Shown here piece by piece: positions 13,031-27,590 of a stretch of DNA of 64,000 bases (position 1 is its first letter; each line of letters begins with the position of its first letter). The DNA comes from Candidatus Anderseniibacteriota bacterium (GTDB taxonomy: Bacteria > Patescibacteriota > Andersenbacteria > UBA10190), in contig JBBDOX010000011.1 of assembly GCA_040876835.1 (NCBI GenBank), forward strand, positions 1,452 to 65,451, written 5' to 3'. A program made the translations under genes and the position numbers. Below the pieces are notes generated by a model that was given only the letters and a program-made list of their open reading frames with translations, was not told the origin of the DNA and searched no databases.

Positions 13031-13578
13031 GACATGTTCGTATTTAGTCTGCTAAAATATAAAGTATGATTGAAAAGCGAACATATGCCGACCGTCGCGA
13101 GCAAAACATCAAGGCTGTAGCTAAGCGTCGAAGAAAGCTAAAAGCAATGGTGATTGAGTATAAAGGCGGTAAGTGTATGATTTGTGGCTATACTCGTAGT
13201 GCGGCAGCATTAGAGCTTCATCATGTTAATCCCAAGGAAAAATCATTTAGTCTCTCCAAAAGAGGGCTGACGAGATCTTGGGAAAAGACAAAAGCTGAAG
13301 CTGATAAGTGTGTGCTAATCTGCTCGAATTGTCACAAAGAAGTACATGCAGGTGTAACGCAGCTTCCGCAAGTAATTGCGGTCGAATAACTGGGTGAATT
13401 CGGGGAAGCCTTAACTGGTAATCCCGAGCCAAGCCGAAGAGGGTATATAAGTTCTTCGGAAGGTGTAGAGACTAGGAAGTGAGTCCCAACAATATTCTTC
13501 CAGATAGCGCCCAGTACCCTTATATGTTGTAAGGGTGATGATATAGTCCATGCCGGCACGAAAGTGTTGGGTTACATG
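13031..13578 (+). mobile_element. Group I intron (548 nt) in the tRNA-Asn anticodon loop, carrying an HNH homing endonuclease ORF
   Basis: The 5' exon ends in U and the intron ends in G (omega-G). An R-like element GAGACUA (13468-13474) and an S-like element GAUAUAGUCC (13540-13549) can pair as P7 (GACUA/UAGUC). ORF 13066-13389 sits in a peripheral loop. Confidence 0.7.
13066..13389 (+). CDS. HNH homing endonuclease (intron-encoded)
   Basis: 107 aa. CMICG…LELHHVNPKEK…CSNCHKEVH is an HNH/zinc-finger nuclease motif. Basic N-terminus. Confidence 0.75.
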   Translation: MIEKRTYADRREQNIKAVAKRRRKLKAMVIEYKGGKCMICGYTRSAAALELHHVNPKEKSFSLSKRGLTRSWEKTKAEADKCVLICSNCHKEVHAGVTQLPQVIAVE

Positions 13579-14414: not shown

Positions 14415-14693
14415 CAAGTCGATTTTATTGCCGCAACTGTGGCCTGATTGCCTTCTACAAGGCAAAAATCGCCAAAATTCGCTGGTTCGAAACCCGGTAA
14501 AATGGCCTTAACATCATCTACGGGTGGGCCTTACACTACCACTAGAAATTTTGTTGACCGGCGTTCTTACGTTCGCCATAGTGTTTGCCTGATTGATCTT
14601 AATTAGGGGAGGGGAAGCTTGACCATGAATCTGGTGTGGGTATACTTAATGTATTGCTTAATATATTAAGTAAGTGATACCCTGATATTACCT

Positions 14694-15008
14694 ATGCTAA
14701 CCAAGAAGGATATACAAGCCGTGCGTGAGGCGATCATTGTTGATGATGAACAGTGGCCGCTAATGTTTAATGCCCTCGCTGACGTGGGCCGGTTTCGCAT
14801 CTTTAAACTATTACTAAAGCAACCGGAAGTGTGTGTGACTGATGTGGCCAATGTGTTGCAAATCTCTCTGCCAGCGGCTTCCCAGCAACTGCGGATTATG
14901 GAGCATGCGGGCTTAGTGAAAAAAGAGCGAATGGGTCAGATGATGTGCTACAGACTCTGTAATGACGATCTGCTTGTGAAATCAATTATTAAGATTACTA
15001 AAAAGTAG
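14694..15008 (+). CDS. ArsR/SmtB-family metalloregulatory HTH repressor
   Basis: 104 aa. …RFRIFKLLLKQPEVCVTDVANVLQISLPAASQQLRIMEHAGLV… is a winged-HTH ArsR signature. First gene of a co-directional nine-gene cluster. Confidence 0.75.
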   Translation: MLTKKDIQAVREAIIVDDEQWPLMFNALADVGRFRIFKLLLKQPEVCVTDVANVLQISLPAASQQLRIMEHAGLVKKERMGQMMCYRLCNDDLLVKSIIKITKK

Positions 15009-15015
15009 CAGATAT

Positions 15016-16029
15016 ATGAAGCAGCCGGCTACCATCATTCTTATCATCGTTTTAGCAGTAGTCGTTGCCGGGGGAGCCCGGTGGTGGCAGAGCAGATCAT
15101 TCAATCTGCCGTGGGGAGGAGAAGGCGTAACCGAAACAATTATGGTAGATAACCAAGAAAAAGAAATTATGGTAACAGACGGAGTTAAGCACAGTGTCCC
15201 TCTTGAGGAGATACGGACTGGGTGTCCGGGGCGAGATTGTATTCCGTCCATTGATAATCCGCAGTTTGAATCTGTTGAGCAGGCAGCCACGTGGCTTAAC
15301 GGTGATGATATTGGTCTGGCACTGGACTTGCGTGGCGTCAAACGGTTCTATCCCTTTCGTATTCTTGTCTCGCACGAGATTGTCAATGACACTATAGGCA
15401 GTCAGCGCGTCCTTGTGTCGTATTGTCCGCTATGTTTTACGGCTATTGTATTTGATCCCCTCGTCGAAGGTGAGCGGGTAGAGTTTGGCGTGTCCGGCAA
15501 ACTGTGGAATTCCAATCTGCTTATGTATGACCGCAAAACGGAGGATACCTTGTGGTCGCAGGTGCAGGGCGAAGCGGTAGTGGGGCCGTTAACCGGCACA
15601 ACATTACCCATTCTGCCTTCTGATGTGTCTAAGTTCGGTGCCTGGAGCGGCACTAATCCTGATGGCGAGGTGCTGTCCCGGGATACCGGCCGCTCGTTTG
15701 TTTCGTATGACAGCGTTCCCTATGGTGGCGATCTCACTAACATTGAGCCGTTCTTTCCCTACTCAAACAAAGACAGCCGTCTTGAGGCGACGGATATCGT
15801 GGCCGGGATCATTATTGGAGATGTACCGAAAGCATATTTGATGACAGCTGTGCAAGAGGCGGGATCATTTACCGAGACGGTAGGCGGAGTGTCTCTGCGA
15901 GTTGAATATGTTAAAGGAGAAGATGCAATCAGGGTGTTCAATGCCGATACCAATGAACGCATTCCTACGATTCCAGCTTTCTGGTTCTCGTGGGTGTCAA
16001 CTCATCCTGAGACAGAATTGTACGAATGA
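15016..16029 (+). CDS. DUF3179-family protein with N-terminal membrane anchor
   Basis: 337 aa. Cys-containing motifs CPGRDCIPSIDNP and YCPLCFTAIVFD. Resembles the uncharacterised DUF3179 family. Confidence 0.55.
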   Translation: MKQPATIILIIVLAVVVAGGARWWQSRSFNLPWGGEGVTETIMVDNQEKEIMVTDGVKHSVPLEEIRTGCPGRDCIPSIDNPQFESVEQAATWLNGDDIGLALDLRGVKRFYPFRILVSHEIVNDTIGSQRVLVSYCPLCFTAIVFDPLVEGERVEFGVSGKLWNSNLLMYDRKTEDTLWSQVQGEAVVGPLTGTTLPILPSDVSKFGAWSGTNPDGEVLSRDTGRSFVSYDSVPYGGDLTNIEPFFPYSNKDSRLEATDIVAGIIIGDVPKAYLMTAVQEAGSFTETVGGVSLRVEYVKGEDAIRVFNADTNERIPTIPAFWFSWVSTHPETELYE

Positions 16030-16667
16030 TTATGAATACAAAAATCATTACCGCAGGCCTTGGTGCAGCGGCGCTCATTGGAGCAGTTATATTTTTTACT
16101 CGTTCTCCACAAGCCGCTCAAGAGACAAACGTAGTCCTGTCTGCTGAACAGACGGGCGGTGTGGAATCAGGAGGCTGTCCGATTAGCAGCACGGGGCAGT
16201 GTGAGGCAGATGGCGGACACCAGACACCTACTGCCTCAACCGGTTCAACCGCGATGGTCTCTGAAAGTGTCGGCGATCACGATTTCACACTGGAAAAACT
16301 TGGCGGCGGGACGATTACGTTGGCAGAGTATCGCAGTCAAAAACCGGTCATTGTCGACTTCTGGGCATCTTGGTGTCCGAACTGCCGGCGGGACATGCCA
16401 AAAGTAAACGAGTGGTACCAACAGTACCGTGATCAGGTGGAAGTTATTGGTGTTAACCTCCAGGAGAGCTCGAAGACGGTTCAGCAGTTTGTTGACAGTA
16501 ATGACATAGTTTTTCCGATTGCGCTTGACCCAGCCGGGGTTGCATCGGCTCAATTCGGAATCCAGTTTACAAATACCCATCTTCTATTCAACAAATCTGG
16601 TGAGCTCGTCCGCGTGATTCCCGGCGATATTAAAGAGGAGGATATTGTATCCTTAATAGAATCGTAA
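16026..16667 (+). CDS. TlpA/ResA-like thiol:disulfide oxidoreductase (thioredoxin fold), membrane-anchored
   Basis: 213 aa. WASWCPNCRRDMP CxxC active site. N-terminal hydrophobic helix. ATG overlaps the upstream stop. Confidence 0.75.
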   Translation: MIMNTKIITAGLGAAALIGAVIFFTRSPQAAQETNVVLSAEQTGGVESGGCPISSTGQCEADGGHQTPTASTGSTAMVSESVGDHDFTLEKLGGGTITLAEYRSQKPVIVDFWASWCPNCRRDMPKVNEWYQQYRDQVEVIGVNLQESSKTVQQFVDSNDIVFPIALDPAGVASAQFGIQFTNTHLLFNKSGELVRVIPGDIKEEDIVSLIES

Positions 16668-16670
16668 ACC

Positions 16671-17201
16671 ATGCAGTCGAAGACCACACTATCGATCGCC
16701 GCCGCCGTTGTCACTATTGTGGCGGGAGCAGTGTGGCTTAGTGCGCAAAATATGAGTCAGGAAGAAGTCAACGAACCCTCGAGTGCGCAACTACCTAGTG
16801 TTTCTTTGACAGATTATGAGGGTAATGAAGTGAACGTAGCTGACTTTTTTGGTAAACCAATCGTTGTTAACTCGTGGGCCGTTTGGTGCCCGTTTTGTGT
16901 GAAAGAATTGCCGGATTTTGTGACGGTCCAGAAAGAATTTGAAAATCAGGTTACCTTTATTGCCATTGACCGCGCCGAACCGCGTGACGTGGCTAAAGAG
17001 TTTACTGATGGCTTAGGCATTACTGATGACTTAGTATTCTTGCTCGATCCAAGAGACTCTTTTTACCAAGCCATTGGAGGTTTTTCTATGCCGGAGACGT
17101 TGTTCGTGAACACTGACGGGGAAGTGGTATTTCACAAGCGCGGCCCGATGCCGCTTGAAGAAATCCGGCAACGGACGCAAGCGTTACTTCAGCAGCAATA
17201 A
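16671..17201 (+). CDS. Second TlpA-like redoxin
   Basis: 176 aa. WAVWCPFCVKELPD CxxC site. N-terminal anchor. Confidence 0.75.
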   Translation: MQSKTTLSIAAAVVTIVAGAVWLSAQNMSQEEVNEPSSAQLPSVSLTDYEGNEVNVADFFGKPIVVNSWAVWCPFCVKELPDFVTVQKEFENQVTFIAIDRAEPRDVAKEFTDGLGITDDLVFLLDPRDSFYQAIGGFSMPETLFVNTDGEVVFHKRGPMPLEEIRQRTQALLQQQ

Positions 17202-17205
17202 ATCT

Positions 17206-17967
17206 ATGATAGATGTTTCTTTGATTATCCCCTCGTTTATAGCCGGCGTACTCACATTCTTGGCGCCCTGCACGCTGCCGTTGGTGCCTGGCTATTTAGG
17301 ATTTATCAGCGGCGTGTCGCTTGATGATTTGCGTGATCCGGTGAAAGCTCCGGGCATTCGTCGTCGAATTCTCTTAAACGGTCTGTTGTATGTTATCGGT
17401 TTTAGCGTTGTCTTTATTATTCTCGGATCATTAGTCGGTTTTGCCGGAGCTTTACTGGGGCAGTATCGTTTGTGGCTGACTCGTATTGGCGGGGTGCTGG
17501 TGATCTTCTTCGGGCTTTACATGATGCGGATTATCAAGCTACCGGCCTCAATGAGCGCGGAAAAACACTTCATTCCCGTGCGCTGGCTTAAACCCGGACA
17601 TCCAACGAGTTCTTTTCTGTTTGGCGTGGCCTTTGCCGCCGGGTGGACTCCGTGCGTAGGCCCCATACTCGCCTCTATCCTGGCGTTAGCGGCGGCGACA
17701 ACCACTCTGTGGCAAGGCGCGTTTTTACTGACTATTTTCTCACTCGGCCTGGCAGTGCCGTTTTTGGTCATCGCTGCCGGTATCGGGTCGGTCGCCCCGC
17801 GGCTCACTAAGCTGGAGAAGTATCTCAATTGGGTATCAATTGTCGGCGGGATATTCCTGGTCTTTGTCGGTATCTTGCTTCTAACCAATCGCTTGGCGGT
17901 CTGGATTGGCTACTCGTACCAGTGGCTGGAATTTCTTAACTATGACCGGTTACTCGAATACCTATGA
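17206..17967 (+). CDS. ccdA: Cytochrome c-type biogenesis / thiol-disulfide transporter CcdA (DsbD membrane core)
   Basis: ATG at 17206, 4 nt after the redoxin stop. …LAPCTLPLVPGY… and …WTPCVGPILASIL… are the two conserved Cys-containing TM motifs. The upstream in-frame extension of the ORF track is rejected. Confidence 0.78.
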   Translation: MIDVSLIIPSFIAGVLTFLAPCTLPLVPGYLGFISGVSLDDLRDPVKAPGIRRRILLNGLLYVIGFSVVFIILGSLVGFAGALLGQYRLWLTRIGGVLVIFFGLYMMRIIKLPASMSAEKHFIPVRWLKPGHPTSSFLFGVAFAAGWTPCVGPILASILALAAATTTLWQGAFLLTIFSLGLAVPFLVIAAGIGSVAPRLTKLEKYLNWVSIVGGIFLVFVGILLLTNRLAVWIGYSYQWLEFLNYDRLLEYL

Positions 17968-18347
17968 AGTATCAACTTGCCAGGAAAGAACTTTTTAAGA
18001 TAACCTGGTTCCCGGTGCTGATAGCATCGTTATGCTGTTTTGCTCCCGTTATTCTGGTGCTGTTTGGTTTGAGCACCGTTGCGTTTGCGGCGTCACTTTC
18101 CGATTTTCTCTACGGTCAATACAAATGGTGGTTTCGCTTGGTTGGTCTATTGCTGCTGGCTGCTTCACTCGTGGTCTACCTGCGTCGCTCAAAAGGTATT
18201 TGCACCATTAATCAAGCCAAACAAAGGCGCAATGAAATCATTAACTTAGCCTTCATAGTCTTAAGCGTCAGTGTGGTTGGGTATATCCTATGGTTATATG
18301 TCATTGTTGAACTTATTGGCCATCTCCTGGGTATTTGGGGAGTATAG
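17964..18347 (+). CDS. Small polytopic membrane protein with CC motif in TM1 (MerT-like)
   Basis: 127 aa. …ASLCCFAPVILVLFGL…YLRRSKGIC… resembles the MerT-superfamily architecture (vicinal Cys pair in the first helix). Assignment is tentative. Confidence 0.4.
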   Translation: MKYQLARKELFKITWFPVLIASLCCFAPVILVLFGLSTVAFAASLSDFLYGQYKWWFRLVGLLLLAASLVVYLRRSKGICTINQAKQRRNEIINLAFIVLSVSVVGYILWLYVIVELIGHLLGIWGV

Positions 18348-18350
18348 TCT

Positions 18351-18812
18351 ATGAACGCTCATCCTGATCACAAGCCACTCGATTACGATTACATTACTGA
18401 TGGTATCTACATTGGCACAAATGTCTGTTGCCAAGTTCATTTTGATGAACGCCTCGCCAAGGAAGGCATAGAGGCAGACATATCTTTGGAAGCAGACCGC
18501 GTGGATGCACCATTTGGTGTGGAGTTTTATTTGTGGCTGCCAGTGGTTGATCATACGGCACCAACACCGGAACAGGTAGAAACTGGTATTCAGATGCTAG
18601 AAACGCTGATGAAATTAGGCAAGAAAGTATACGTCCATTGCAAGAATGGGCATGGCCGGGCACCGACACTAATAGCTGCGTATCTGGTTAAACAAGGTAA
18701 GTCGGTGGATGAGGCAATTGCTTTTTTGCAGACGAAGCGGTCAGCCGTTCACCTTCGCGATATTCAGGAAAAAGCTTTAAGAGCATGTCGACAATCACTA
18801 ACAGTCTCTTAA
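18351..18812 (+). CDS. Dual-specificity / tyrosine-phosphatase-fold protein (CX5R)
   Basis: 153 aa. VHCKNGHGRAPT is the HCxxGxxR(S/T) P-loop of the PTP/DSP fold. Confidence 0.7.
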   Translation: MNAHPDHKPLDYDYITDGIYIGTNVCCQVHFDERLAKEGIEADISLEADRVDAPFGVEFYLWLPVVDHTAPTPEQVETGIQMLETLMKLGKKVYVHCKNGHGRAPTLIAAYLVKQGKSVDEAIAFLQTKRSAVHLRDIQEKALRACRQSLTVS

Positions 18813-18815
18813 GTT

Positions 18816-18998
18816 ATGGCAAGGAGTGTACAACAAGACGATTCAAGTCAGTTTCAATGTGAGGAGTGTGGTTTTATATACCGCGAAAGGCAGTGGGCGG
18901 AGAAATGCGAGGCGTGGTGCAAAGAGCACCAAAGCTGCAATCTCGAAATAATCCAGCATGGGGTTCCTGGCAAAGAAGGAGGTGATAGTCATGGATAA
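18816..18998 (+). CDS. Small CxxC…C…C zinc-ribbon-like protein
   Basis: 60 aa. QCEECGFIY…CEAWCKEHQSC. Directly follows the phosphatase. Confidence 0.4.
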   Translation: MARSVQQDDSSQFQCEECGFIYRERQWAEKCEAWCKEHQSCNLEIIQHGVPGKEGGDSHG

Positions 18999-19152
18999 GT
19001 GTTTAAAGTGTAGTATGGATTCGGAGGGATACAAGTGCGACGCGTGCGGGGCAGAGTCGAAGGAGCACGATGATAACCATGCGTGCGGGAGCGATCACTG
19101 CATGCCCAAATGCAAGGGATGTGGTCAAGCCCAAGTAAAATGTCCTTGCTAA
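18991..19152 (+). CDS. Cysteine-rich (12 Cys in 53 aa) metallothionein-like metal-binding peptide
   Basis: An AGGAGG RBS sits 8 nt before ATG 18991. MDKCLKCSMDSEGYKCDACG…HACGSDHCMPKCKGCGQAQVKCPC. The ORF-track entry starts earlier at 18958. Confidence 0.5.
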   Translation: MDKCLKCSMDSEGYKCDACGAESKEHDDNHACGSDHCMPKCKGCGQAQVKCPC

Positions 19153-19242
19153 TAACCTTTCGCAGCTGTAACAAAAACCGCTCGGTGGCCGATATTTCTT
19201 CCTTTTTATGCTTTTTATGTATTTTTAGTTTATTATGTAGGT

Positions 19243-20496
19243 ATGAATAAAAATATAATTGTTTCTGCTCTTTTTCTTCTCATCGGCGGTCTTGTAGGCG
19301 TAGGCGCATATGCCACTTCGACCGGTACCCGAGTGCCGAGTGATCGCATCCCCGGCCAGTATGTTGTTGTTCTCAAAGACACAACAACAAACCCAAATGA
19401 AGTTGCGAACAAGGTTGCTAAAGAATACGGCTTGGGCTTGCAGCAGGTATATGAGCACGCCCTGAAAGGATTTGCGGCGACTATTCCCGATGCCAGACTG
19501 GATAATGTAAAAAATGACAGTCGGGTGTTGTTTGTGAGTGAGGATAAAGTCGTGACGACATTTGCCAAACCTTCAGCTCCCAGTTCTTCAGCTAGCCAGA
19601 CCCTGCCAACTGGTGTTGACCGGATTAATGCGGAGAATAAAGCGAACAAAGGCACAGGCGTGAACGTAGCGGTGATTGATACTGGCATTGATCTAAAACA
19701 CCCTGACCTTAAAGCGAATATTGTGGGTGGTAAGAATTGCTCAACCGGCCGAAGCTATACTGACGGCAACGGGCACGGCACGCATGTGGCCGGAACGATT
19801 GCGGCGCTGAATAACAGCACGGGTGTAGTCGGCGTGGCGCCAGAAGCTAAGTTATGGGCGGTGCGGGTTTTGGATAATAGTGGCAGTGGATCATGGTCTT
19901 CAGTCATCTGCGGTATTGATTTTGTGACGAGCAAGGCGGGAACTATCAAAGTAGCCAATATGAGTCTCGGTGGCAGTGGGGGTAGTGATAACAATTGTGG
20001 GTTCACAAATAAGGATGCGTTACATAAAGCGATCTGCAATTCCCGGAATGCGGGTGTAACGTATGTGGTGGCGGCCGGTAACAGTGCGGCGGATGCCAGC
20101 AAATTTGTTCCGGCAGCGTATGACGATGCGGTCATTACTGTTTCCGCTTTGGCTGATTCTAATGGTCAACCGGGTGGCGGCGGAGCCGCAACCAGTTATG
20201 GTGTCGATGACACCTTTGCCAGTTTCAGCAATTACGGCAACGTGGTTGATCTGGGTGCACCTGGTGTGAATATTCTCTCCACATGGAAAGGTGGCGGCTA
20301 CAATACGATTAGTGGCACTAGTATGGCCACACCGCATGTGACCGGATCAGCGGCATTGTATATTGCTGCGCATCCCGGTTCGACTTGGGCACAAGTACAC
20401 GATGGCCTGAAAGCAATTGGTGAACTGACTGGCTTTGGGCACACAGATCCGTCCGGCAACCACCCCGAAGCGGTTGTTCGGGCTGATGCACTCTAA
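19243..20496 (+). CDS. Secreted subtilisin-like serine protease (S8) with I9 propeptide
   Basis: 417 aa. Signal peptide. Catalytic-triad motifs VAVIDTGID, HGTHVAGTIAA and GTSMATPHVTG. Confidence 0.88.
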   Translation: MNKNIIVSALFLLIGGLVGVGAYATSTGTRVPSDRIPGQYVVVLKDTTTNPNEVANKVAKEYGLGLQQVYEHALKGFAATIPDARLDNVKNDSRVLFVSEDKVVTTFAKPSAPSSSASQTLPTGVDRINAENKANKGTGVNVAVIDTGIDLKHPDLKANIVGGKNCSTGRSYTDGNGHGTHVAGTIAALNNSTGVVGVAPEAKLWAVRVLDNSGSGSWSSVICGIDFVTSKAGTIKVANMSLGGSGGSDNNCGFTNKDALHKAICNSRNAGVTYVVAAGNSAADASKFVPAAYDDAVITVSALADSNGQPGGGGAATSYGVDDTFASFSNYGNVVDLGAPGVNILSTWKGGGYNTISGTSMATPHVTGSAALYIAAHPGSTWAQVHDGLKAIGELTGFGHTDPSGNHPEAVVRADAL

Positions 20497-20504
20497 CTCT
20501 ACAC

Positions 20505-20804
20505 ATGGAAACACCTCTACCGCCTCGTAAATCAAAGAAGGGTAAGTTAGTCGGCGTACTTATCATTATAGTATTGGTCGTTGGTGTTGCTGCCTATTTC
20601 TACGTGCGACATGTTTTCACCCGCCTCAACCAAGCCGAACAAGTTATTGCCGACGCCCAAGCCTACCAGATCACGAGCGATGCTCTGCAAACCGAGCACG
20701 CTCGGTGTCAGGATTTTATTGTCCAGCGCCGCGGCGATTTTGGAGACTTTGAGTACTGCAAAGCATTTATTAATTGGGTGGCAAGCAATCAATTGCTGCC
20801 CTAG
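20505..20804 (+). CDS. Hypothetical membrane-anchored protein
   Basis: 99 aa with an N-terminal TM helix. No recognisable domain. Confidence 0.4.
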   Translation: METPLPPRKSKKGKLVGVLIIIVLVVGVAAYFYVRHVFTRLNQAEQVIADAQAYQITSDALQTEHARCQDFIVQRRGDFGDFEYCKAFINWVASNQLLP

Positions 20805-20852
20805 TACGCAATTATTAATGGGGTCAGCCACCATTAATTCTTCAGCTCCCTT

Positions 20853-22631: not shown

Positions 22632-23033
22632 ATGCAAAAAGTTATCTTCATATGTGCTGAAAACGCGGGGCGCTCTCAAATGGCAGAAGCGTTTTTTAAT
22701 ACCTTATCGGGCAATTCTGGTTTTACCGCTGAAAGTGCTGGTACTACGCCTGCTTCCACAATTAACCCCGTGGCTATTGAAGTAATGGGAGAAAAAGGCA
22801 TGGATATTTCTTCTCAATTTCCCAAGCAGTTTGACCCTGATACTGCTGGTGAGTATGAACGCCTTATCTCTTTCGGGTGTCTGGTAAAATCTGCATTTTC
22901 GCCAGCCGTGCAGGAAAGGATTGAGGATTGGATTGTAGAAGACCCCAAGGATAAGGAGCTAGAAGAGGTTCGTACTATCCGTGATGATATTGAGCGACGG
23001 GTGAAAGCACTGTTAGCTGACCTGGGAGAATAA
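22632..23033 (+). CDS. Low-molecular-weight phosphotyrosine phosphatase / ArsC-like (LMW-PTP fold)
   Basis: 133 aa. N-terminal P-loop ICAENAGRSQMAE (CX5R-S). Lacks the downstream Cys pair of thioredoxin-coupled ArsC, so LMW-PTP is favoured. Confidence 0.68.
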   Translation: MQKVIFICAENAGRSQMAEAFFNTLSGNSGFTAESAGTTPASTINPVAIEVMGEKGMDISSQFPKQFDPDTAGEYERLISFGCLVKSAFSPAVQERIEDWIVEDPKDKELEEVRTIRDDIERRVKALLADLGE

Positions 23034-23112: not shown

Positions 23113-23239
23113 AGTAATTTTAACCGCTCAATACAGCGATATAATTTTCGACCCAAGTCGGAGTTTCGAACCAGAGGTAGGCAATTAATAACTTCGCTTG
23201 ATTATCTCTTTATCTCTTTATATATTCGTAGTAGCGAAT

Positions 23240-23752
23240 ATGTATCAAGAGGTGTTCCAACTTCACGCTGATCTCCTTAAAGCCTTGGCCCAACCACGCC
23301 GTCTTGAGATTATCAACTTGCTTCAAAATCAAGAGCTGTCAGTGACTGAGATGCAGGAGATGTTGGCTTTACCCCAGGCTAACCTAAGCCAGCACTTGCA
23401 GGTGTTACGCAAGCAAGGAGTGGTTATTGATCGACGAGATGGCAAACAGATATTTTATCGGTTAGCACACAAGAACTTTCTCAAAGCCAATCATCTTTTG
23501 CGCGATGTGTTGATTAAACGGCACGAGAAAACACCATTAGCAAAAGTTATGAATAAAGAGGTGGCTCAACTACTACCCGTCGTTATCGACCCCGTCTGTG
23601 GTATGCGGGTGAGTAAAAAAACTGCAGCCGCTTCTCACCCACACAAAGGAAGTCGCTTTTATTTCTGCGCTAGGGGGTGTTTGAATAAATTTAAGAAGTC
23701 CCCTCAAGTATATTCCTTAACAACAAAAACTCATGAACACACCGCACCGTAA
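23240..23752 (+). CDS. ArsR-family HTH regulator fused to a C-terminal YHS/TRASH-type metal-binding domain (putative copper sensor)
   Basis: ATG at 23240; the ORF-track start is TTG 23198. HTH …LSVTEMQEMLALPQANLSQHLQVLRKQGVV…. C-terminal DPVCGMRV…FYFCARGC is a YHS-like motif. Confidence 0.68.
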   Translation: MYQEVFQLHADLLKALAQPRRLEIINLLQNQELSVTEMQEMLALPQANLSQHLQVLRKQGVVIDRRDGKQIFYRLAHKNFLKANHLLRDVLIKRHEKTPLAKVMNKEVAQLLPVVIDPVCGMRVSKKTAAASHPHKGSRFYFCARGCLNKFKKSPQVYSLTTKTHEHTAP

Positions 23753-25427
23753 CAAGTATCTTGGCATCATCGTTGTTATCGCCCTACTTATTGGCGCCGG
23801 TTGGTTAGCGGGCAGATATCAGAATGGTGGCGATCAACGCACTAGATCACAGCAAGTTTTGAAATTCTTTTCATCTGAAACAACGGGATTAACCGATGCT
23901 GTGCCTATGCCAATCGTTGAGCTGAAAGACGGTGATACCTACGACCTCACAGCGCAGCAAGTTAAGAAAAGTATCAACGGGCAGGATGTGAAAATGCTCG
24001 CCTACAACGGCTCTGTTCCCGGGCCGCTGATTAAAGTGCCGCAAGGAGCGGAGATCACTGTTAACTTCACCAACAACACGGATGTGGAAACCACCCTACA
24101 TTCTCACGGCGTACGGGTTGATAACGCATTCGATGGTATCCCAGGCATAACCCAAGACCCCATTCCCGTCGGCGGGTCTTTTACCTATCGCCTCAAATTC
24201 CCCGATGCTGGTATGTACTGGTATCACCCGCATATCCGAGAAGACTATGCCCAAGAGCTGGGACTGTACGGTAATTTCTTAGTTGAACCGAAAGATACTG
24301 CGTTGTGGTCGCCGGTTAATCGTGAAGTACCCCTGGTGCTCGATGACATTTTAATTGAGAATGGCCGGATCGCAGCTTTTGCGGAAAATGATGCCAGTCA
24401 TACCCTTATGGGTCGCTTTGGTAATACGATGCTGATAAATGGCGAAACCAGTGCAAGCCTTATTGCCAATCCAGGAGAAGTTGTCCGTTTCTTTATCACT
24501 AACACCGCCAACACCCGCACTTTCAATTTTAGTATTCCGGGGGCACAAATGAAGCTCGTTGGTAGCGATGGCGGAATGTATGAGAAAGAAACATTTGTTG
24601 ATAGCGTTACCATTAGCCCATCGGAGAGAGCGACAGTAGACGTGCGATTCGCGAACGTCGGAACATACTCACTGCAACACGCCACACCTCAAAAAACGTA
24701 TCCGCTTGGCACTGTCATTGTAAGTGGTGAGGCAGTCTCTCCCTCATATGCATCCCAGTTTGCAACGACGCGAACCAATGCAATTGTGCAATCGGAAATG
24801 GATGAGTTGCGTCCTCTGCTAGCAAGGGTTGTTGATAAAAGTCTCAATATTGGCATCGACATGGAAATGATGAACATGATACAGGGTGGTGGCGGACACA
24901 TGATGTTCAACGGACTGCTTGGCAACGAAGCCTTAGCGCAAATGAGTAATCCCACAGCTGGTCACGGGCAGCACATGATGCCGGACGGTAGCATAATGAG
25001 TAACAATATGATGATGGGTGGCAATGATCCGATTGAGTGGGAAGATGATATGGTACCGATGAATATAAACTCCAACAAAGAGTCAGTTCAATGGAAGCTG
25101 ATCGATGAAGTGACTGGTAAAGCGAACATGGATATTGACTGGAAGTTTAAGGTCGGAGACAAAGTCAAAATTAGAATTACCAATGACGCTAATTCCATGC
25201 ATCCGATGCAACATCCCATTCATCTACACGGTCAGCGTTTTCTTGTCACCAGCACCAATGGTATAGCAAGTGGTAACCTAGTCTGGAAAGACACCGCGCT
25301 TATCAAAACTGGCGATACGGTTGAACTGCTGGTTGATATGACTAATCCAGGAGAGTGGATGCTGCACTGTCACATTGCTGAGCACTTGGAGGACGGCATG
25401 ATGCTGCCGTTTACCGTTAGCCCTTAG
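23733..25427 (+). CDS. Multicopper oxidase (CueO/laccase-like) with Met/His-rich insert
   Basis: 564 aa. Copper-ligand motifs HSHGVRV, WYHPH, HPIHLHGQRF and HCHIAEHLEDGMM. Met-rich segment MEMMNMIQGGGGHMMFN…HMMPDGSIMSNNMMMGG. Signal/TM helix at the N-terminus. Confidence 0.85.
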   Translation: MNTPHRNKYLGIIVVIALLIGAGWLAGRYQNGGDQRTRSQQVLKFFSSETTGLTDAVPMPIVELKDGDTYDLTAQQVKKSINGQDVKMLAYNGSVPGPLIKVPQGAEITVNFTNNTDVETTLHSHGVRVDNAFDGIPGITQDPIPVGGSFTYRLKFPDAGMYWYHPHIREDYAQELGLYGNFLVEPKDTALWSPVNREVPLVLDDILIENGRIAAFAENDASHTLMGRFGNTMLINGETSASLIANPGEVVRFFITNTANTRTFNFSIPGAQMKLVGSDGGMYEKETFVDSVTISPSERATVDVRFANVGTYSLQHATPQKTYPLGTVIVSGEAVSPSYASQFATTRTNAIVQSEMDELRPLLARVVDKSLNIGIDMEMMNMIQGGGGHMMFNGLLGNEALAQMSNPTAGHGQHMMPDGSIMSNNMMMGGNDPIEWEDDMVPMNINSNKESVQWKLIDEVTGKANMDIDWKFKVGDKVKIRITNDANSMHPMQHPIHLHGQRFLVTSTNGIASGNLVWKDTALIKTGDTVELLVDMTNPGEWMLHCHIAEHLEDGMMLPFTVSP

Positions 25428-25445
25428 TTTATTAATTGTTCTTTT

Positions 25446-27590
25446 ATGAACCACAATAATCAAACATCGAAAACATACACTTGTCCGATGCATCCTAATG
25501 TTCGGCAGGGTACTCCCGGTATGTGTGCTGAATGCGGAATGGCACTTGTAGAGACAAAGGACGAAGCTATTCACCACGGACACGCTGAAGACCATAGTCA
25601 GCACGACAAGCACGAAGGCCACAGCACGAATATCTTCGCCAAGAAATTCTGGATTAGCTTGGTTTTAACAATCCCGATTGTTCTTTATTCACCTTTGCCG
25701 CAAACATTTCTCGGCTGGTCACCGCCGACTTTTTCTGGCTCTTGGCTTATCCCACTGCTACTTGGATCAATTGTCTTTTTCTACGGCGGCTGGGTTTTCC
25801 TAACCAGCGCTTGGCGGGAACTGAAGGGCAAAGCGCCCGGAATGATGACGCTCATTTCGTTGGCGATAGTGACGGCGTATGTGTATAGCGTCATCCAAGT
25901 TTTACGAGGATTAGAAGAAACACTGTTTTGGGAACTCACGACTTTGATTGTTGTGATGCTCTTAGGGCACTGGATGGAGATGCGGGCAGTCAAAGGAGCG
26001 CAAGGAGCTTTAAAGGAGTTGTCCAAGTTGTTACCTGATACGGCAGAAGTTGAATCCCCCTCCGCTAAAGTTTCGGGGGATAAACTCACTCGTGTTATTC
26101 CTCTCTCTGAACTGCAAGCAGGCGATATTATCATTGTTCGCCCCGGTGGCAAGGTGGCGGCTGATGGTGATGTTATTGAAGGAGAATCAGATATCGACGA
26201 AGCTTTGGCCACCGGTGAATCAAAGCCAGTCCAGAAAAAAGTTGGGGATGCGGTGATTGCCGGTACTATAAACGGCGATGGTTCGCTGCGTGTAAAGATC
26301 ACCAAGATTGGCGACGACACGTTCTTAGCTGGCGTGATGCGTTTGGTGCAAGAAGCGCAAGCCAGCAAGTCAAAGCTACAACTTTTATCTGATAAAGCAG
26401 CTTTTTATCTGACAGTCATCGCGGTTGCAGTTGGGTTGCTCACCTTGGTTGTCTGGTTGCCGTTGCGCGGCGCTGACTTTGGCTTTACCCGCATGGTGGC
26501 CGTTCTGGTGATTGCCTGTCCGCATGCGCTTGGACTTGCTATCCCCCTTGTCGCTTCTATCTCAACTACGATGGCTGCTCGTAACGGTTTTCTGGTCAGG
26601 CAGCGATTAGCACTTGAAGCAGCTCGCAATATTGATGTAGTTCTGTTCGATAAAACCGGAACACTGACCAAAGGAGAGTATGGCGTGTCTCGTATTTTTC
26701 CCGTACATGCGGCCGATGATAAGGAAGTATTATATTTGGCAGCTTCGGTTGACGTAAAATCTGAACACTCAGCTTCCCGAGCAATCGTCAGGAAGGCGCA
26801 AGAAGAGAATATTAGCTTGACGGCCATTACTGGTTTCAAGCGACTGCCGGGCAGAGGTGTCAGCGGTGTGATTAATGGTCAAACAACTAAAGTTGGTGGT
26901 CGCGCTCTCTGGAATGAGTCAGGCCTATCGTTGGCAGTTGCCGATCGTCAAAAGATTGAAGCGGAGAGCAAGGCCGGTAAAACCATTATTTATGTACTGA
27001 AAGAAAAGGAGCTCGCAGGCATTATTACACTCGGTGACATCATCCGCGAAGAGTCACGAGAGGCCATCCGGCAACTCAAGGCTCAAAATGTTCAGGTAGC
27101 TTTGGTTTCTGGAGATTCAGAAGCCGTAGCAAAGTGGGTATCACAGGAGCTTGATATCGATGAATACTTTGCGGAAGTGTTGCCGGAGCACAAAGCGGAC
27201 AAGGTTAAACAATTACAGCAGCAAGGTAAGAAGGTCGCCATGGTCGGCGACGGCATCAACGACGCCCCGGCCTTAACGCAGGCTGATGTCGGCATTGCCA
27301 TCGGAGTCGGTACGAACGTCGCCATCGAATCAGCCGGCATCGTGCTGGTAAAAAACGATCCGCGAGACATTCCCAAGATTATCCGGCTTTCCCGTCTGAC
27401 CTACACCAAAATGATCCAGAACCTCTTCTGGGCAACGGGGTACAATATTGTAGCACTGCCATTAGCAGCAGGGGTGGCAGTCGCTTGGGGTATTGTGCTT
27501 AACCCGGCCGTGTCAGCTGTTTTTATGTCGCTTTCCACTGTAATTGTGGCTGTGAATGCGGTGATGTTGCGACGACAGTCGTTACAGTAG
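25446..27590 (+). CDS. copB: Copper-translocating P1B-type ATPase, CopB-like (P1B-3: CPH motif, His-rich N-terminus)
   Basis: 714 aa. N-terminal CPMHP…CAECGM and HHGHAEDHSQHDKHEGH. TM CPH (ACPHALG). DKTGTLT, GDGINDAP and TGES motifs. Confidence 0.9.
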   Translation: MNHNNQTSKTYTCPMHPNVRQGTPGMCAECGMALVETKDEAIHHGHAEDHSQHDKHEGHSTNIFAKKFWISLVLTIPIVLYSPLPQTFLGWSPPTFSGSWLIPLLLGSIVFFYGGWVFLTSAWRELKGKAPGMMTLISLAIVTAYVYSVIQVLRGLEETLFWELTTLIVVMLLGHWMEMRAVKGAQGALKELSKLLPDTAEVESPSAKVSGDKLTRVIPLSELQAGDIIIVRPGGKVAADGDVIEGESDIDEALATGESKPVQKKVGDAVIAGTINGDGSLRVKITKIGDDTFLAGVMRLVQEAQASKSKLQLLSDKAAFYLTVIAVAVGLLTLVVWLPLRGADFGFTRMVAVLVIACPHALGLAIPLVASISTTMAARNGFLVRQRLALEAARNIDVVLFDKTGTLTKGEYGVSRIFPVHAADDKEVLYLAASVDVKSEHSASRAIVRKAQEENISLTAITGFKRLPGRGVSGVINGQTTKVGGRALWNESGLSLAVADRQKIEAESKAGKTIIYVLKEKELAGIITLGDIIREESREAIRQLKAQNVQVALVSGDSEAVAKWVSQELDIDEYFAEVLPEHKADKVKQLQQQGKKVAMVGDGINDAPALTQADVGIAIGVGTNVAIESAGIVLVKNDPRDIPKIIRLSRLTYTKMIQNLFWATGYNIVALPLAAGVAVAWGIVLNPAVSAVFMSLSTVIVAVNAVMLRRQSLQ

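Follow-up and report, generated by a model that had tools for sequence, protein, structure and literature searches.

What does a cysteine-rich peptide of 53 residues, encoded at the 3' end of a run of thiol-redox genes, do in a member of the Patescibacteriota? The question is raised by a stretch of 64,000 nucleotides from a Candidatus Anderseniibacteriota bacterium (assembly GCA_040876835.1, contig JBBDOX010000011.1, positions 1,452 to 65,451 of the forward strand), referred to here as the window, in which a sequence-only reading had singled out an open reading frame (ORF) at 18991-19152 (+) as a metallothionein-like peptide and possibly a new one. We find that this ORF is a genuine gene and belongs to a widespread, previously unnamed family. 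Members often lie within copper-resistance gene clusters of ultra-small bacteria, a setting in which copper or zinc is the probable metal bound. Our best explanation, held with moderate confidence, is that the family comprises cytoplasmic Cys/His metal-binding mini-proteins that take part in copper and thiol stress defense, either buffering Cu(I) or serving as its chaperone.

The peptide gene and its family

Translation of the ORF, whose coordinates include the stop codon, gives MDKCLKCSMDSEGYKCDACGAESKEHDDNHACGSDHCMPKCKGCGQAQVKCPC exactly. The sequence-only reading was correct about the frame and its 53 residues, but it counted 12 cysteines where there are 10, which are accompanied by 3 histidines. 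The cysteines form three CxxC pairs (positions 4/7, 16/19, and 41/44), one CxxxC pair (37/41), and a single C-terminal CxC (51/53); the CxxC spacing reported earlier is therefore present, but only one of the two reported CxC motifs is. Ten cysteines among 53 residues (19%) compare with a background of 0.95% in the window's 46 long ORFs (P ~8e-11), and the peptide has the highest Cys share of all 451 window ORFs of at least 40 amino acids.

A Shine-Dalgarno (SD) sequence, AGGAGG, lies within AAGGAGGTGA at 18977-18982 (+), with a spacer of 8 nucleotides (nt) to the ATG at 18991, just as the earlier reading had it. An SD sequence resembling GGAGGTGA stands at an equal distance in seven other loci (L001, L003, L004, L005, L007, L012, and L020), and homologs in general begin with MD(K/N)C and have their SD sequence 7 to 9 nt upstream. 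Because homologs share this beginning and this spacing, we place the start at 18991 and not at the in-frame ATG at 18958; the longer, 64-amino-acid ORF that the latter would open was ruled out, as the upstream in-frame sequence is not conserved.

Comparison with nine homologs gave pS values of 0.77 to 1.06, at which synonymous sites are saturated, and pN values of 0.11 to 0.24, and two closer pairs of peptide genes have dN/dS ratios of 0.03 to 0.04. Purifying selection is specific to this frame of the forward strand, which rules out the antisense ORFs at 18843-19034, 18989-19174, and 19003-19134. The ORF at 18991-19152 is thus a genuine protein-coding gene under strong purifying selection. Neither a signal peptide nor a hydrophobic segment was found in the peptide, and since it is without a hydrophobic segment, it is probably cytoplasmic.

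A public contig (L039, from the Logan assembly of SRR27977662) is 100% identical to window positions 16351-20812. The gene caller applied to that contig skipped both the peptide gene and the small DUF7128 gene that overlaps it and called a 38-amino-acid antisense ORF instead, which explains why an exact look-up of the peptide found nothing on record. The omission of two small genes from an identical public contig is a practical warning about gene calling.

Relatives are numerous. A word-indexed search returned two 53-amino-acid relatives at 75 to 81% identity, and with HMMER, run exhaustively against 1.84 billion cluster representatives, we obtained 87 clusters at 50% identity with an E value of at most 1e-3, nearly all of them 52 to 70 amino acids long; these 87 matches include at least one false positive, a 586-amino-acid eukaryotic C2H2 zinc-finger protein. 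By a back-translated pattern scan, we located 19 loci in reference genomes and 107 in metagenomes. The hosts are mostly Patescibacteria (Saccharibacteria, Andersenbacteria, Kaiserbacteria, Taylorbacteria, and Wildermuthbacteria), with a few members from metagenome-assembled genomes of Gammaproteobacteria and Acidimicrobiia and one from a Pacearchaeota archaeon (DPANN). A tblastn search of a plasmid collection with the peptide gave no match. Every named member is labeled "hypothetical protein," neither Pfam nor NCBIfam had a match for the peptide or for the several homologs scanned, and our literature search found no paper that ties the candidate phyla radiation to metallothioneins or carries the motifs of this family. 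The family was previously unnamed and lies outside Pfam, NCBIfam, and the PDB, which bears out the earlier suggestion that the peptide could be new.

The potential metal ligands are the most constant feature of the alignment. Across 64 diverse members, C4, C7, C16, C41, C44, C51, and C53 are conserved in all 64 and C19 and H30 in 63, and position 32 is Cys in 50 members and His in 14; H26, H36, and C37 occur in about half of the family, the window peptide included. There are thus ten ligand positions conserved family-wide and 13 potential ligands in the window peptide. The sequence-only reading had made its claim depend on conservation of the Cys pattern in orthologous loci, and the pattern is conserved there. 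The exchange of Cys and His at position 32 is a ligand-type substitution and therefore favors metal coordination over disulfides. Positions that are conserved and not ligands include G13, an aromatic residue (Y/F/W) at 14, K15, G20, E22, D27, G33, P39, K40, and A47. The mean net charge of the family is -2.5, which disfavors nucleic acid binding. One family member of 97 amino acids (P0046) has an extra N-terminal Cys/His-rich module, MPHYICHGGCHGVSPTPGVCQTENCSKKSQSLDECFCTDGSH..., without a Pfam or NCBIfam match.

Genomic context across the family

Among the neighbors of the peptide homologs, copper P-type ATPases, multicopper oxidases, CsoR, and DsbA-like proteins are the most frequent. Neighbor clustering combined with Pfam at 21 loci found copper P-type ATPases at 7, multicopper oxidases at 7 and in the window, DsbA-like proteins at 5, and CsoR at 4; recurrent neighbors in this set further included DUF6629, HXXEE, and several unnamed membrane or secreted proteins rich in Met/His/Cys. 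When all 146 ORFs of 90 amino acids or more within 3.5 kb of 20 loci were assigned to Pfam families without preselection, E1-E2 ATPases and DsbA-like proteins led the list (5 each), followed by multicopper oxidases (4), DUF6629 (3), and CsoR, HMA, and HMBD (2 each). With the metagenomes added, there were 85 unique peptides, 48 of them in loci no shorter than 6 kb; among these 48 loci, a P1B ATPase, multicopper oxidase, or CsoR gene lay within 4 kb in 16, and a member of the extended copper-island set was present in 22. A profile-based recount over 84 loci found CopA in 17, multicopper oxidases in 13, DsbA-like proteins in 11, and CsoR in 6. Genes for DsbD/CcdA, DsbA, VKOR, and MerR also recur near peptide homologs, and the metal and thiol context described earlier is in this way supported by neighboring genes in the window and family-wide. 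By a rough estimate, in a genome of ~1 Mb that carries copA once or twice, chance would place a few percent of positions this near to it, and against that estimate the enrichment is large.

Within the copper islands, the peptide gene is co-directional with its neighbors and lies 20 to 43 nt from them, and its place in the island varies. The order is oxidase-peptide in L013, CsoR-c9-peptide-oxidase in L016, and CopA-DUF6629-peptide-HXXEE-oxidase in L017. Such close, co-directional placement at varying positions points to functional linkage, maintained by selection, and not to inherited synteny. No free ORF of the HMA/CopZ type was seen in the loci examined. A "Heavy_Cys_CGP" domain beside one homolog was set aside as a metal marker, since its name refers to being Cys-heavy and not to heavy metals.

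The same islands hold other genes that are worth recording. Four further unnamed families recur in these Patescibacteria copper islands, none of which matches Pfam or NCBIfam: a His-rich secreted protein of ~140 amino acids (13 loci; for example, L005:4368-4808), a protein of ~200 amino acids with a CCCKCWRW motif (9 loci; L005:5427-6020), a membrane protein of 72 to 87 amino acids (12 loci; L016:7756-7974), and a Met/His-rich membrane protein (8 loci; L008:1980-2405). In a separate locus, L041:2274-2874 encodes a MerR-family regulator followed by an overlapping, 50-amino-acid Cys-rich ORF, MVYMALKKDEVYKCPDADCGCEVTVTKGAAPGQGGDEAPRCCCGKSMVKK, ~0.7 kb upstream of that locus's own DUF7128-peptide gene pair and with VKOR and DsbA genes nearby. 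This ORF weakly resembles the Mycobacterium tuberculosis Cu(I) metallothionein MymT (pairwise E value of 7e-4) and may represent another metallothionein-like gene that has gone unannotated.

Fold, known metal proteins, and rival explanations

AlphaFold2, given an alignment of 63 sequences, predicts a compact fold for the peptide (pLDDT, 90.2; pTM, 0.67) with a beta-hairpin at residues 10 to 16 and a second strand at 37 to 41, the whole being mostly beta and coil. Foldseek found nothing in the PDB with an E value below 1 for this model; the best local superpositions, all nonsignificant, were to rubredoxin-like/zinc-ribbon modules (LapB and an archaeal ribosomal Zn-ribbon protein). Sequence profiles point in the same direction at a similarly low level, with an E value of 0.1 for Pfam Zn_ribbon_LapB and, in a PDB profile search, knuckle-level similarity to C2H2 fingers, DUF1610 Zn ribbons, and rubredoxins. 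A match of 6.7e-9 to a designed six-finger protein was discarded, since it adds up six weak repeats, of which the strongest by itself has an E value of 0.11. The N-terminal half carries the motifs C4xxC7G and C16xxC19G, and two such CxxCG knuckles flanking a beta-hairpin are what the peptide has in common with rubredoxin-type zinc ribbons such as the LapB C-terminal domain and archaeal DUF1610 proteins; the profile and fold matches to that type are, however, below threshold, and the C-terminal His/Cys half has no counterpart there. From the model, the peptide looks like an ordered domain in which an N-terminal rubredoxin-type zinc ribbon is joined to a His/Cys-rich half.

This bears directly on the term "metallothionein-like." The peptide is small and Cys-rich, as had been proposed, but its conserved G13, Y14, K15, G20, E22, P39, and K40 together with the pLDDT of 90 point to a defined domain, atypical of a classical, floppy metallothionein; the predicted fold and these residues seem closer to those of a zinc-ribbon-type domain that has two or three distinct sites. 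Low mass and high Cys content, by which metallothioneins are operationally recognized, describe it well (53 amino acids, 10 Cys), and the term is acceptable as a working analogy. As for descent, SmtA/BmtA and MymT are the only two established sequence families of bacterial metallothioneins, alongside which stand the Csp storage proteins (PMC7558416). The peptide had no match to PF02069 (SmtA/BmtA) at an E value of up to 1, and hhalign comparison of the family profile gave a probability of 0.2% for SmtA and of 5.5% over 18 columns for MymT. The remote homology to SmtA or other metallothionein families for which the earlier reading had proposed a search was not found, and these profile tests exclude membership of the peptide in either family.

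Taken with the genomic context, the ligand pattern suggests how a cytoplasmic copper protein of this kind might work. The two N-terminal CxxCG knuckles (C4/C7 and C16/C19) on the beta-hairpin would hold a structural metal, probably Zn. In the C-terminal half, H30, C/H32, C41xxC44, and C51xC53 would form one or two further sites for soft metals, most likely Cu(I). The peptide would buffer or sequester cytoplasmic Cu(I) or hand it to a CopA ATPase of the HMBD type. We infer the buffer or chaperone role from the association with copper genes across the family. In the window, the peptide gene would be the final cistron of an operon under an ArsR/SmtB regulator, its translation coupled to that of the gene before it. 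The operon also encodes an envelope thiol-redox relay (two TlpA-like proteins and CcdA), a MerT-like membrane protein, and DUF7128, and it lies close to a cluster that encodes an ArsR-YHS regulator, a multicopper oxidase, and CopA.

Several observations weigh against a copper role. Half to two-thirds of the loci have no recognizable metal gene nearby (for example, L003, L009, L011, L014, L023, L026, and L028), and half or more show housekeeping neighbors only. In the window itself, the peptide gene sits within a thiol-redox operon and does not adjoin CopA or the multicopper oxidase. No CsoR operator (TACCC-N-GGGTA) was found upstream of any of the 24 peptide genes searched; CsoR boxes occur at the csoR genes in L001, L005, and L012, and there is one more in L017, where the adjoining gene was not identified. 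The conserved nonligand residues and the confident fold suit a specific, zinc-finger-like interaction module equally as well as a metal buffer, and the assignment of ligands to shared sites is drawn from their spacing.

Among characterized proteins, MymT offers the closest parallel in circumstance. Both proteins are 53 amino acids long and Cys/His-rich, MymT is cytoplasmic as the peptide probably is, both went initially unannotated and are absent from standard family libraries, and both are found genetically among CsoR-type repressors and multicopper oxidases, MymT belonging to a RicR/CsoR-type regulon with MmcO (PMC7558416). The two differ in that the peptide has CxxC knuckles and a terminal CxC where MymT has motifs of the CxHxCxC type, and in that the peptide has a confidently predicted ordered fold and no CsoR box upstream. 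A MymT-type protein holds 4 to 6 Cu(I) in a solvent-shielded thiolate core. The parallel with CopZ/Atx1 is one of setting: the peptide is likewise small, acidic, probably cytoplasmic, and encoded beside a P1B copper ATPase. Unlike CopZ, however, it has neither an HMA domain nor a [GSTA]MxCxxC motif, its predicted structure is mostly beta and coil, and its ligands far exceed the needs of a single digonal site. By analogy, the peptide may be a functional counterpart of CopZ in settings where CopA has an HMBD in place of an HMA domain and the neighborhood lacks a CopZ gene. A bolder form of the copper explanation, which we offer tentatively as a possibility, would add to the copper metallothioneins and chaperones of prokaryotes a third class with a structure of its own. 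Scaffolded on a zinc ribbon, its members would buffer Cu(I), deliver it to CopA ATPases of the HMBD type, and replace CopZ in Patescibacteria and DPANN archaea, with one clade paired stoichiometrically with DUF7128.

The strongest of the rival explanations has the peptide as a structural zinc-finger or zinc-ribbon adaptor, holding two or three structural Zn ions and binding a partner such as DUF7128, some regulator, or a membrane protein. It would then serve in regulation or assembly and neither sequester nor traffic metal. The confident compact fold and the conserved residues named above, with Y, F, or W at position 14, speak for it, as do the weak profile matches, which are solely to zinc fingers and Zn-ribbon proteins, and the many loci without metal genes. 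DUF7128 brings a further argument. The ORF that encodes it (18816-18998, +) shares 8 nt, ATGGATAA, with the peptide gene at 18991-18998 (+), where the stop of one gene and the start of the next may be translationally coupled. The sequence-only reading had noted this overlapping frame with a motif of its own, and both are there: the 60-amino-acid product has the pattern CxxC-x12-C-x3-C-x5-C (C15xxC18...C31...C35...C41). Its match to PF23447 has an E value of 2.2e-5 and 24.7 bits against a cutoff of 25.7. We collected 85 homologs, with E values down to 1e-20 and many of them already annotated as PF23447, and all the residues invariant among the homologs (C15, C18, Y22, C31, W34, C35, C41, N42, and I45) are present here. 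On this homology, the ORF encodes a genuine zinc-finger protein of the DUF7128 family. AlphaFold2 predicts a beta-hairpin and a helix with zinc-finger-like topology (pLDDT, 82.7), and Foldseek found no PDB match with an E value below 1 for this model. The nonconserved tail (...KEGGDSHG) is a read-through of the next gene's SD sequence.

In five loci, a DUF7128 gene immediately precedes the peptide gene and extends into it, an arrangement typical of proteins made in fixed stoichiometry. In L040, L041, L042, and L043, the DUF7128 match reaches or crosses the peptide start and the upstream neighbors differ; the 8-nt overlap and the HG* ending could be read directly in L041 only. L099 likewise has the two genes side by side, and DUF7128 occurs elsewhere inside the copper islands L001, L005, L006, and L113. 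Since the gene pair is conserved, the overlapping mini-protein is more than a curiosity. As an argument for an adaptor, however, the pairing is offset by the fact that most peptide genes are without DUF7128 and that DUF7128 is widespread without the peptide, in unrelated contexts that are heterogeneous and gave no functional lead. The dominant context signal is the enrichment in copper islands, 13 potential ligands in 53 residues are more than a two-site structural finger needs, and an exposed C-terminal CxC is unusual in purely structural sites. We consider the adaptor explanation unlikely.

Quite unlikely, in our judgment, is a Zn/Cd metallothionein in the sense of SmtA, which would sequester Zn(II) or Cd(II) and be derepressed through the ArsR/SmtB regulator at the head of the operon. 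That regulator is assigned above the cutoff of NF033788, and an operator-like repeat covers the -10 hexamer ahead of it. The peptide also shares with SmtA/BmtA (a Zn4Cys9His2 cluster in a zinc-finger-like fold) its small size, mixed Cys/His ligands, and a conserved aromatic residue by a zinc-finger-like element (PDB 1JJD; PMC7558416). It nevertheless has no homology to SmtA or PF02069 and a different ligand spacing, and the neighbors of the family are copper genes (HMBD CopA, multicopper oxidase, and CsoR), not zinc genes of the ZntA, CzcD, or Zur type.

A redox-active mini-protein, whose rubredoxin-like Fe(Cys)4 center or dithiols would carry electrons to CcdA/TlpA or DsbD/DsbA or reduce Cu(II), would account for the rubredoxin-like CxxCG knuckles and for the CcdA/DsbD, TlpA, DsbA-like, and VKOR genes that recur beside family members. 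We rate it as very improbable: the Cys/His exchange at position 32 and the near-invariant H30 (63/64) indicate metal ligation and not dithiol chemistry, the knuckle spacing (x8) is unlike that of rubredoxin and no homology supports the comparison, and CcdA systems normally take thioredoxin as their donor. Finally, the idea that the ORF has no function in its own right, being a chance ORF or the precursor of a ribosomally synthesized and posttranslationally modified peptide (RiPP), could draw on the gene caller's omission and on a short, Cys-rich sequence like those of SCIFF or ranthipeptide precursors, but it is essentially refuted by strong purifying selection, by wide conservation over the whole length with no division into leader and core, and, for a RiPP, by neighbor censuses in which no conserved maturase (radical SAM, cyclodehydratase, or protease) adjoins the peptide gene.

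The operon in the window and a candidate for copper handling in minimal cells

In the window, the peptide gene stands at the 3' end of a same-strand run of genes that is headed by an ArsR/SmtB regulator and in which gaps and overlaps amount to a few bases. A promoter-like sequence, TTGACC-16-TATACT (10/12), at 14619-14646 (+) precedes the ArsR gene and is likely the promoter of the operon. It was recognized by its match to the consensus alone, and shuffled sequences yield no fewer such sites. Its -10 hexamer is overlapped by a 13-4-13 inverted repeat, TACTTAATGTATT/AATATATTAAGTA, at 14643-14672, of which no second copy was found elsewhere in the window. From its position, this repeat is probably the operator of the ArsR/SmtB repressor, which would fit autoregulation. 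Just upstream of the operon, an ORF of 107 amino acids (13066-13389) with CxxC...CxxC and HH motifs appears HNH nuclease-like by translation alone.

All genes of the run are on the forward strand. The first encodes the ArsR/SmtB-family metalloregulator (14694-15008; HTH_5, 1.1e-9; NF033788, 5.5e-20). It is followed by a DUF3179 protein with an N-terminal membrane anchor (15016-16029; 1.9e-76), by two TlpA/ResA-like thioredoxins identified by Pfam and NCBIfam profiles, the first of them membrane-anchored with a WCxxC motif (16026-16667) and the second at 16671-17201, and by a transmembrane thiol:disulfide electron transporter of the CcdA/DsbD type (17206-17967; DsbD_TM, 7.8e-19), whose start is taken from the gene call on the identical public contig. 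Next comes a small membrane protein of 127 amino acids with a CC motif in its first transmembrane segment (17964-18347), which weakly resembles MerT/MerF (MerT, 0.0029; merT_RC607, 1.6e-5 and far below the cutoff). A Pfam scan identified the product of 18351-18812 as a dual-specificity (CX5R) phosphatase-fold protein, and a gene of this kind also lies directly upstream of the DUF7128-peptide pair in L040. The DUF7128 and peptide genes complete the run. A relay of TlpA and CcdA close to copper genes is reminiscent of Scs, a system for copper tolerance in Salmonella; a literature search on DUF3179, CcdA, and copper found nothing relevant.

The earlier claim that the peptide gene is the terminal member of a metal and thiol operon stands as far as its place at the 3' end of the run is concerned, and its terminal status is plausible. 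A search for an intrinsic terminator after 19152 found none, and transcription may therefore read through into a same-strand subtilase gene that begins at 19243, 90 nt past the peptide gene.

Farther downstream lies a copper cluster (23198-27590), whose multicopper oxidase gene is 4.6 kb from the peptide gene. The cluster is headed by a regulator in which an ArsR helix-turn-helix is fused to a YHS domain (23198-23752, +), likely a copper sensor, followed by the multicopper oxidase (23733-25427, +), which clusters with the oxidases that adjoin peptide homologs elsewhere, and by a P1B-type copper ATPase whose N-terminal domain is an HMBD and not an HMA domain (25446-27590, +). Between the thiol operon and this cluster, 22632-23033 encodes a protein of the LMW-PTP/ArsC fold that may be an arsenate reductase or a phosphatase.

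To our knowledge, there has been next to no study of how the candidate phyla radiation handles copper. The CopA pumps that neighbor this family carry HMBDs, with no CopZ-type gene seen nearby in the loci examined, and a widespread, unnamed family of ~53-residue proteins in copper islands is an easily expressed candidate for the buffering or routing of cytoplasmic copper in minimal cells. The peptide itself is a clean and testable candidate for such a role, and with DUF7128 it makes up a conserved two-gene module.

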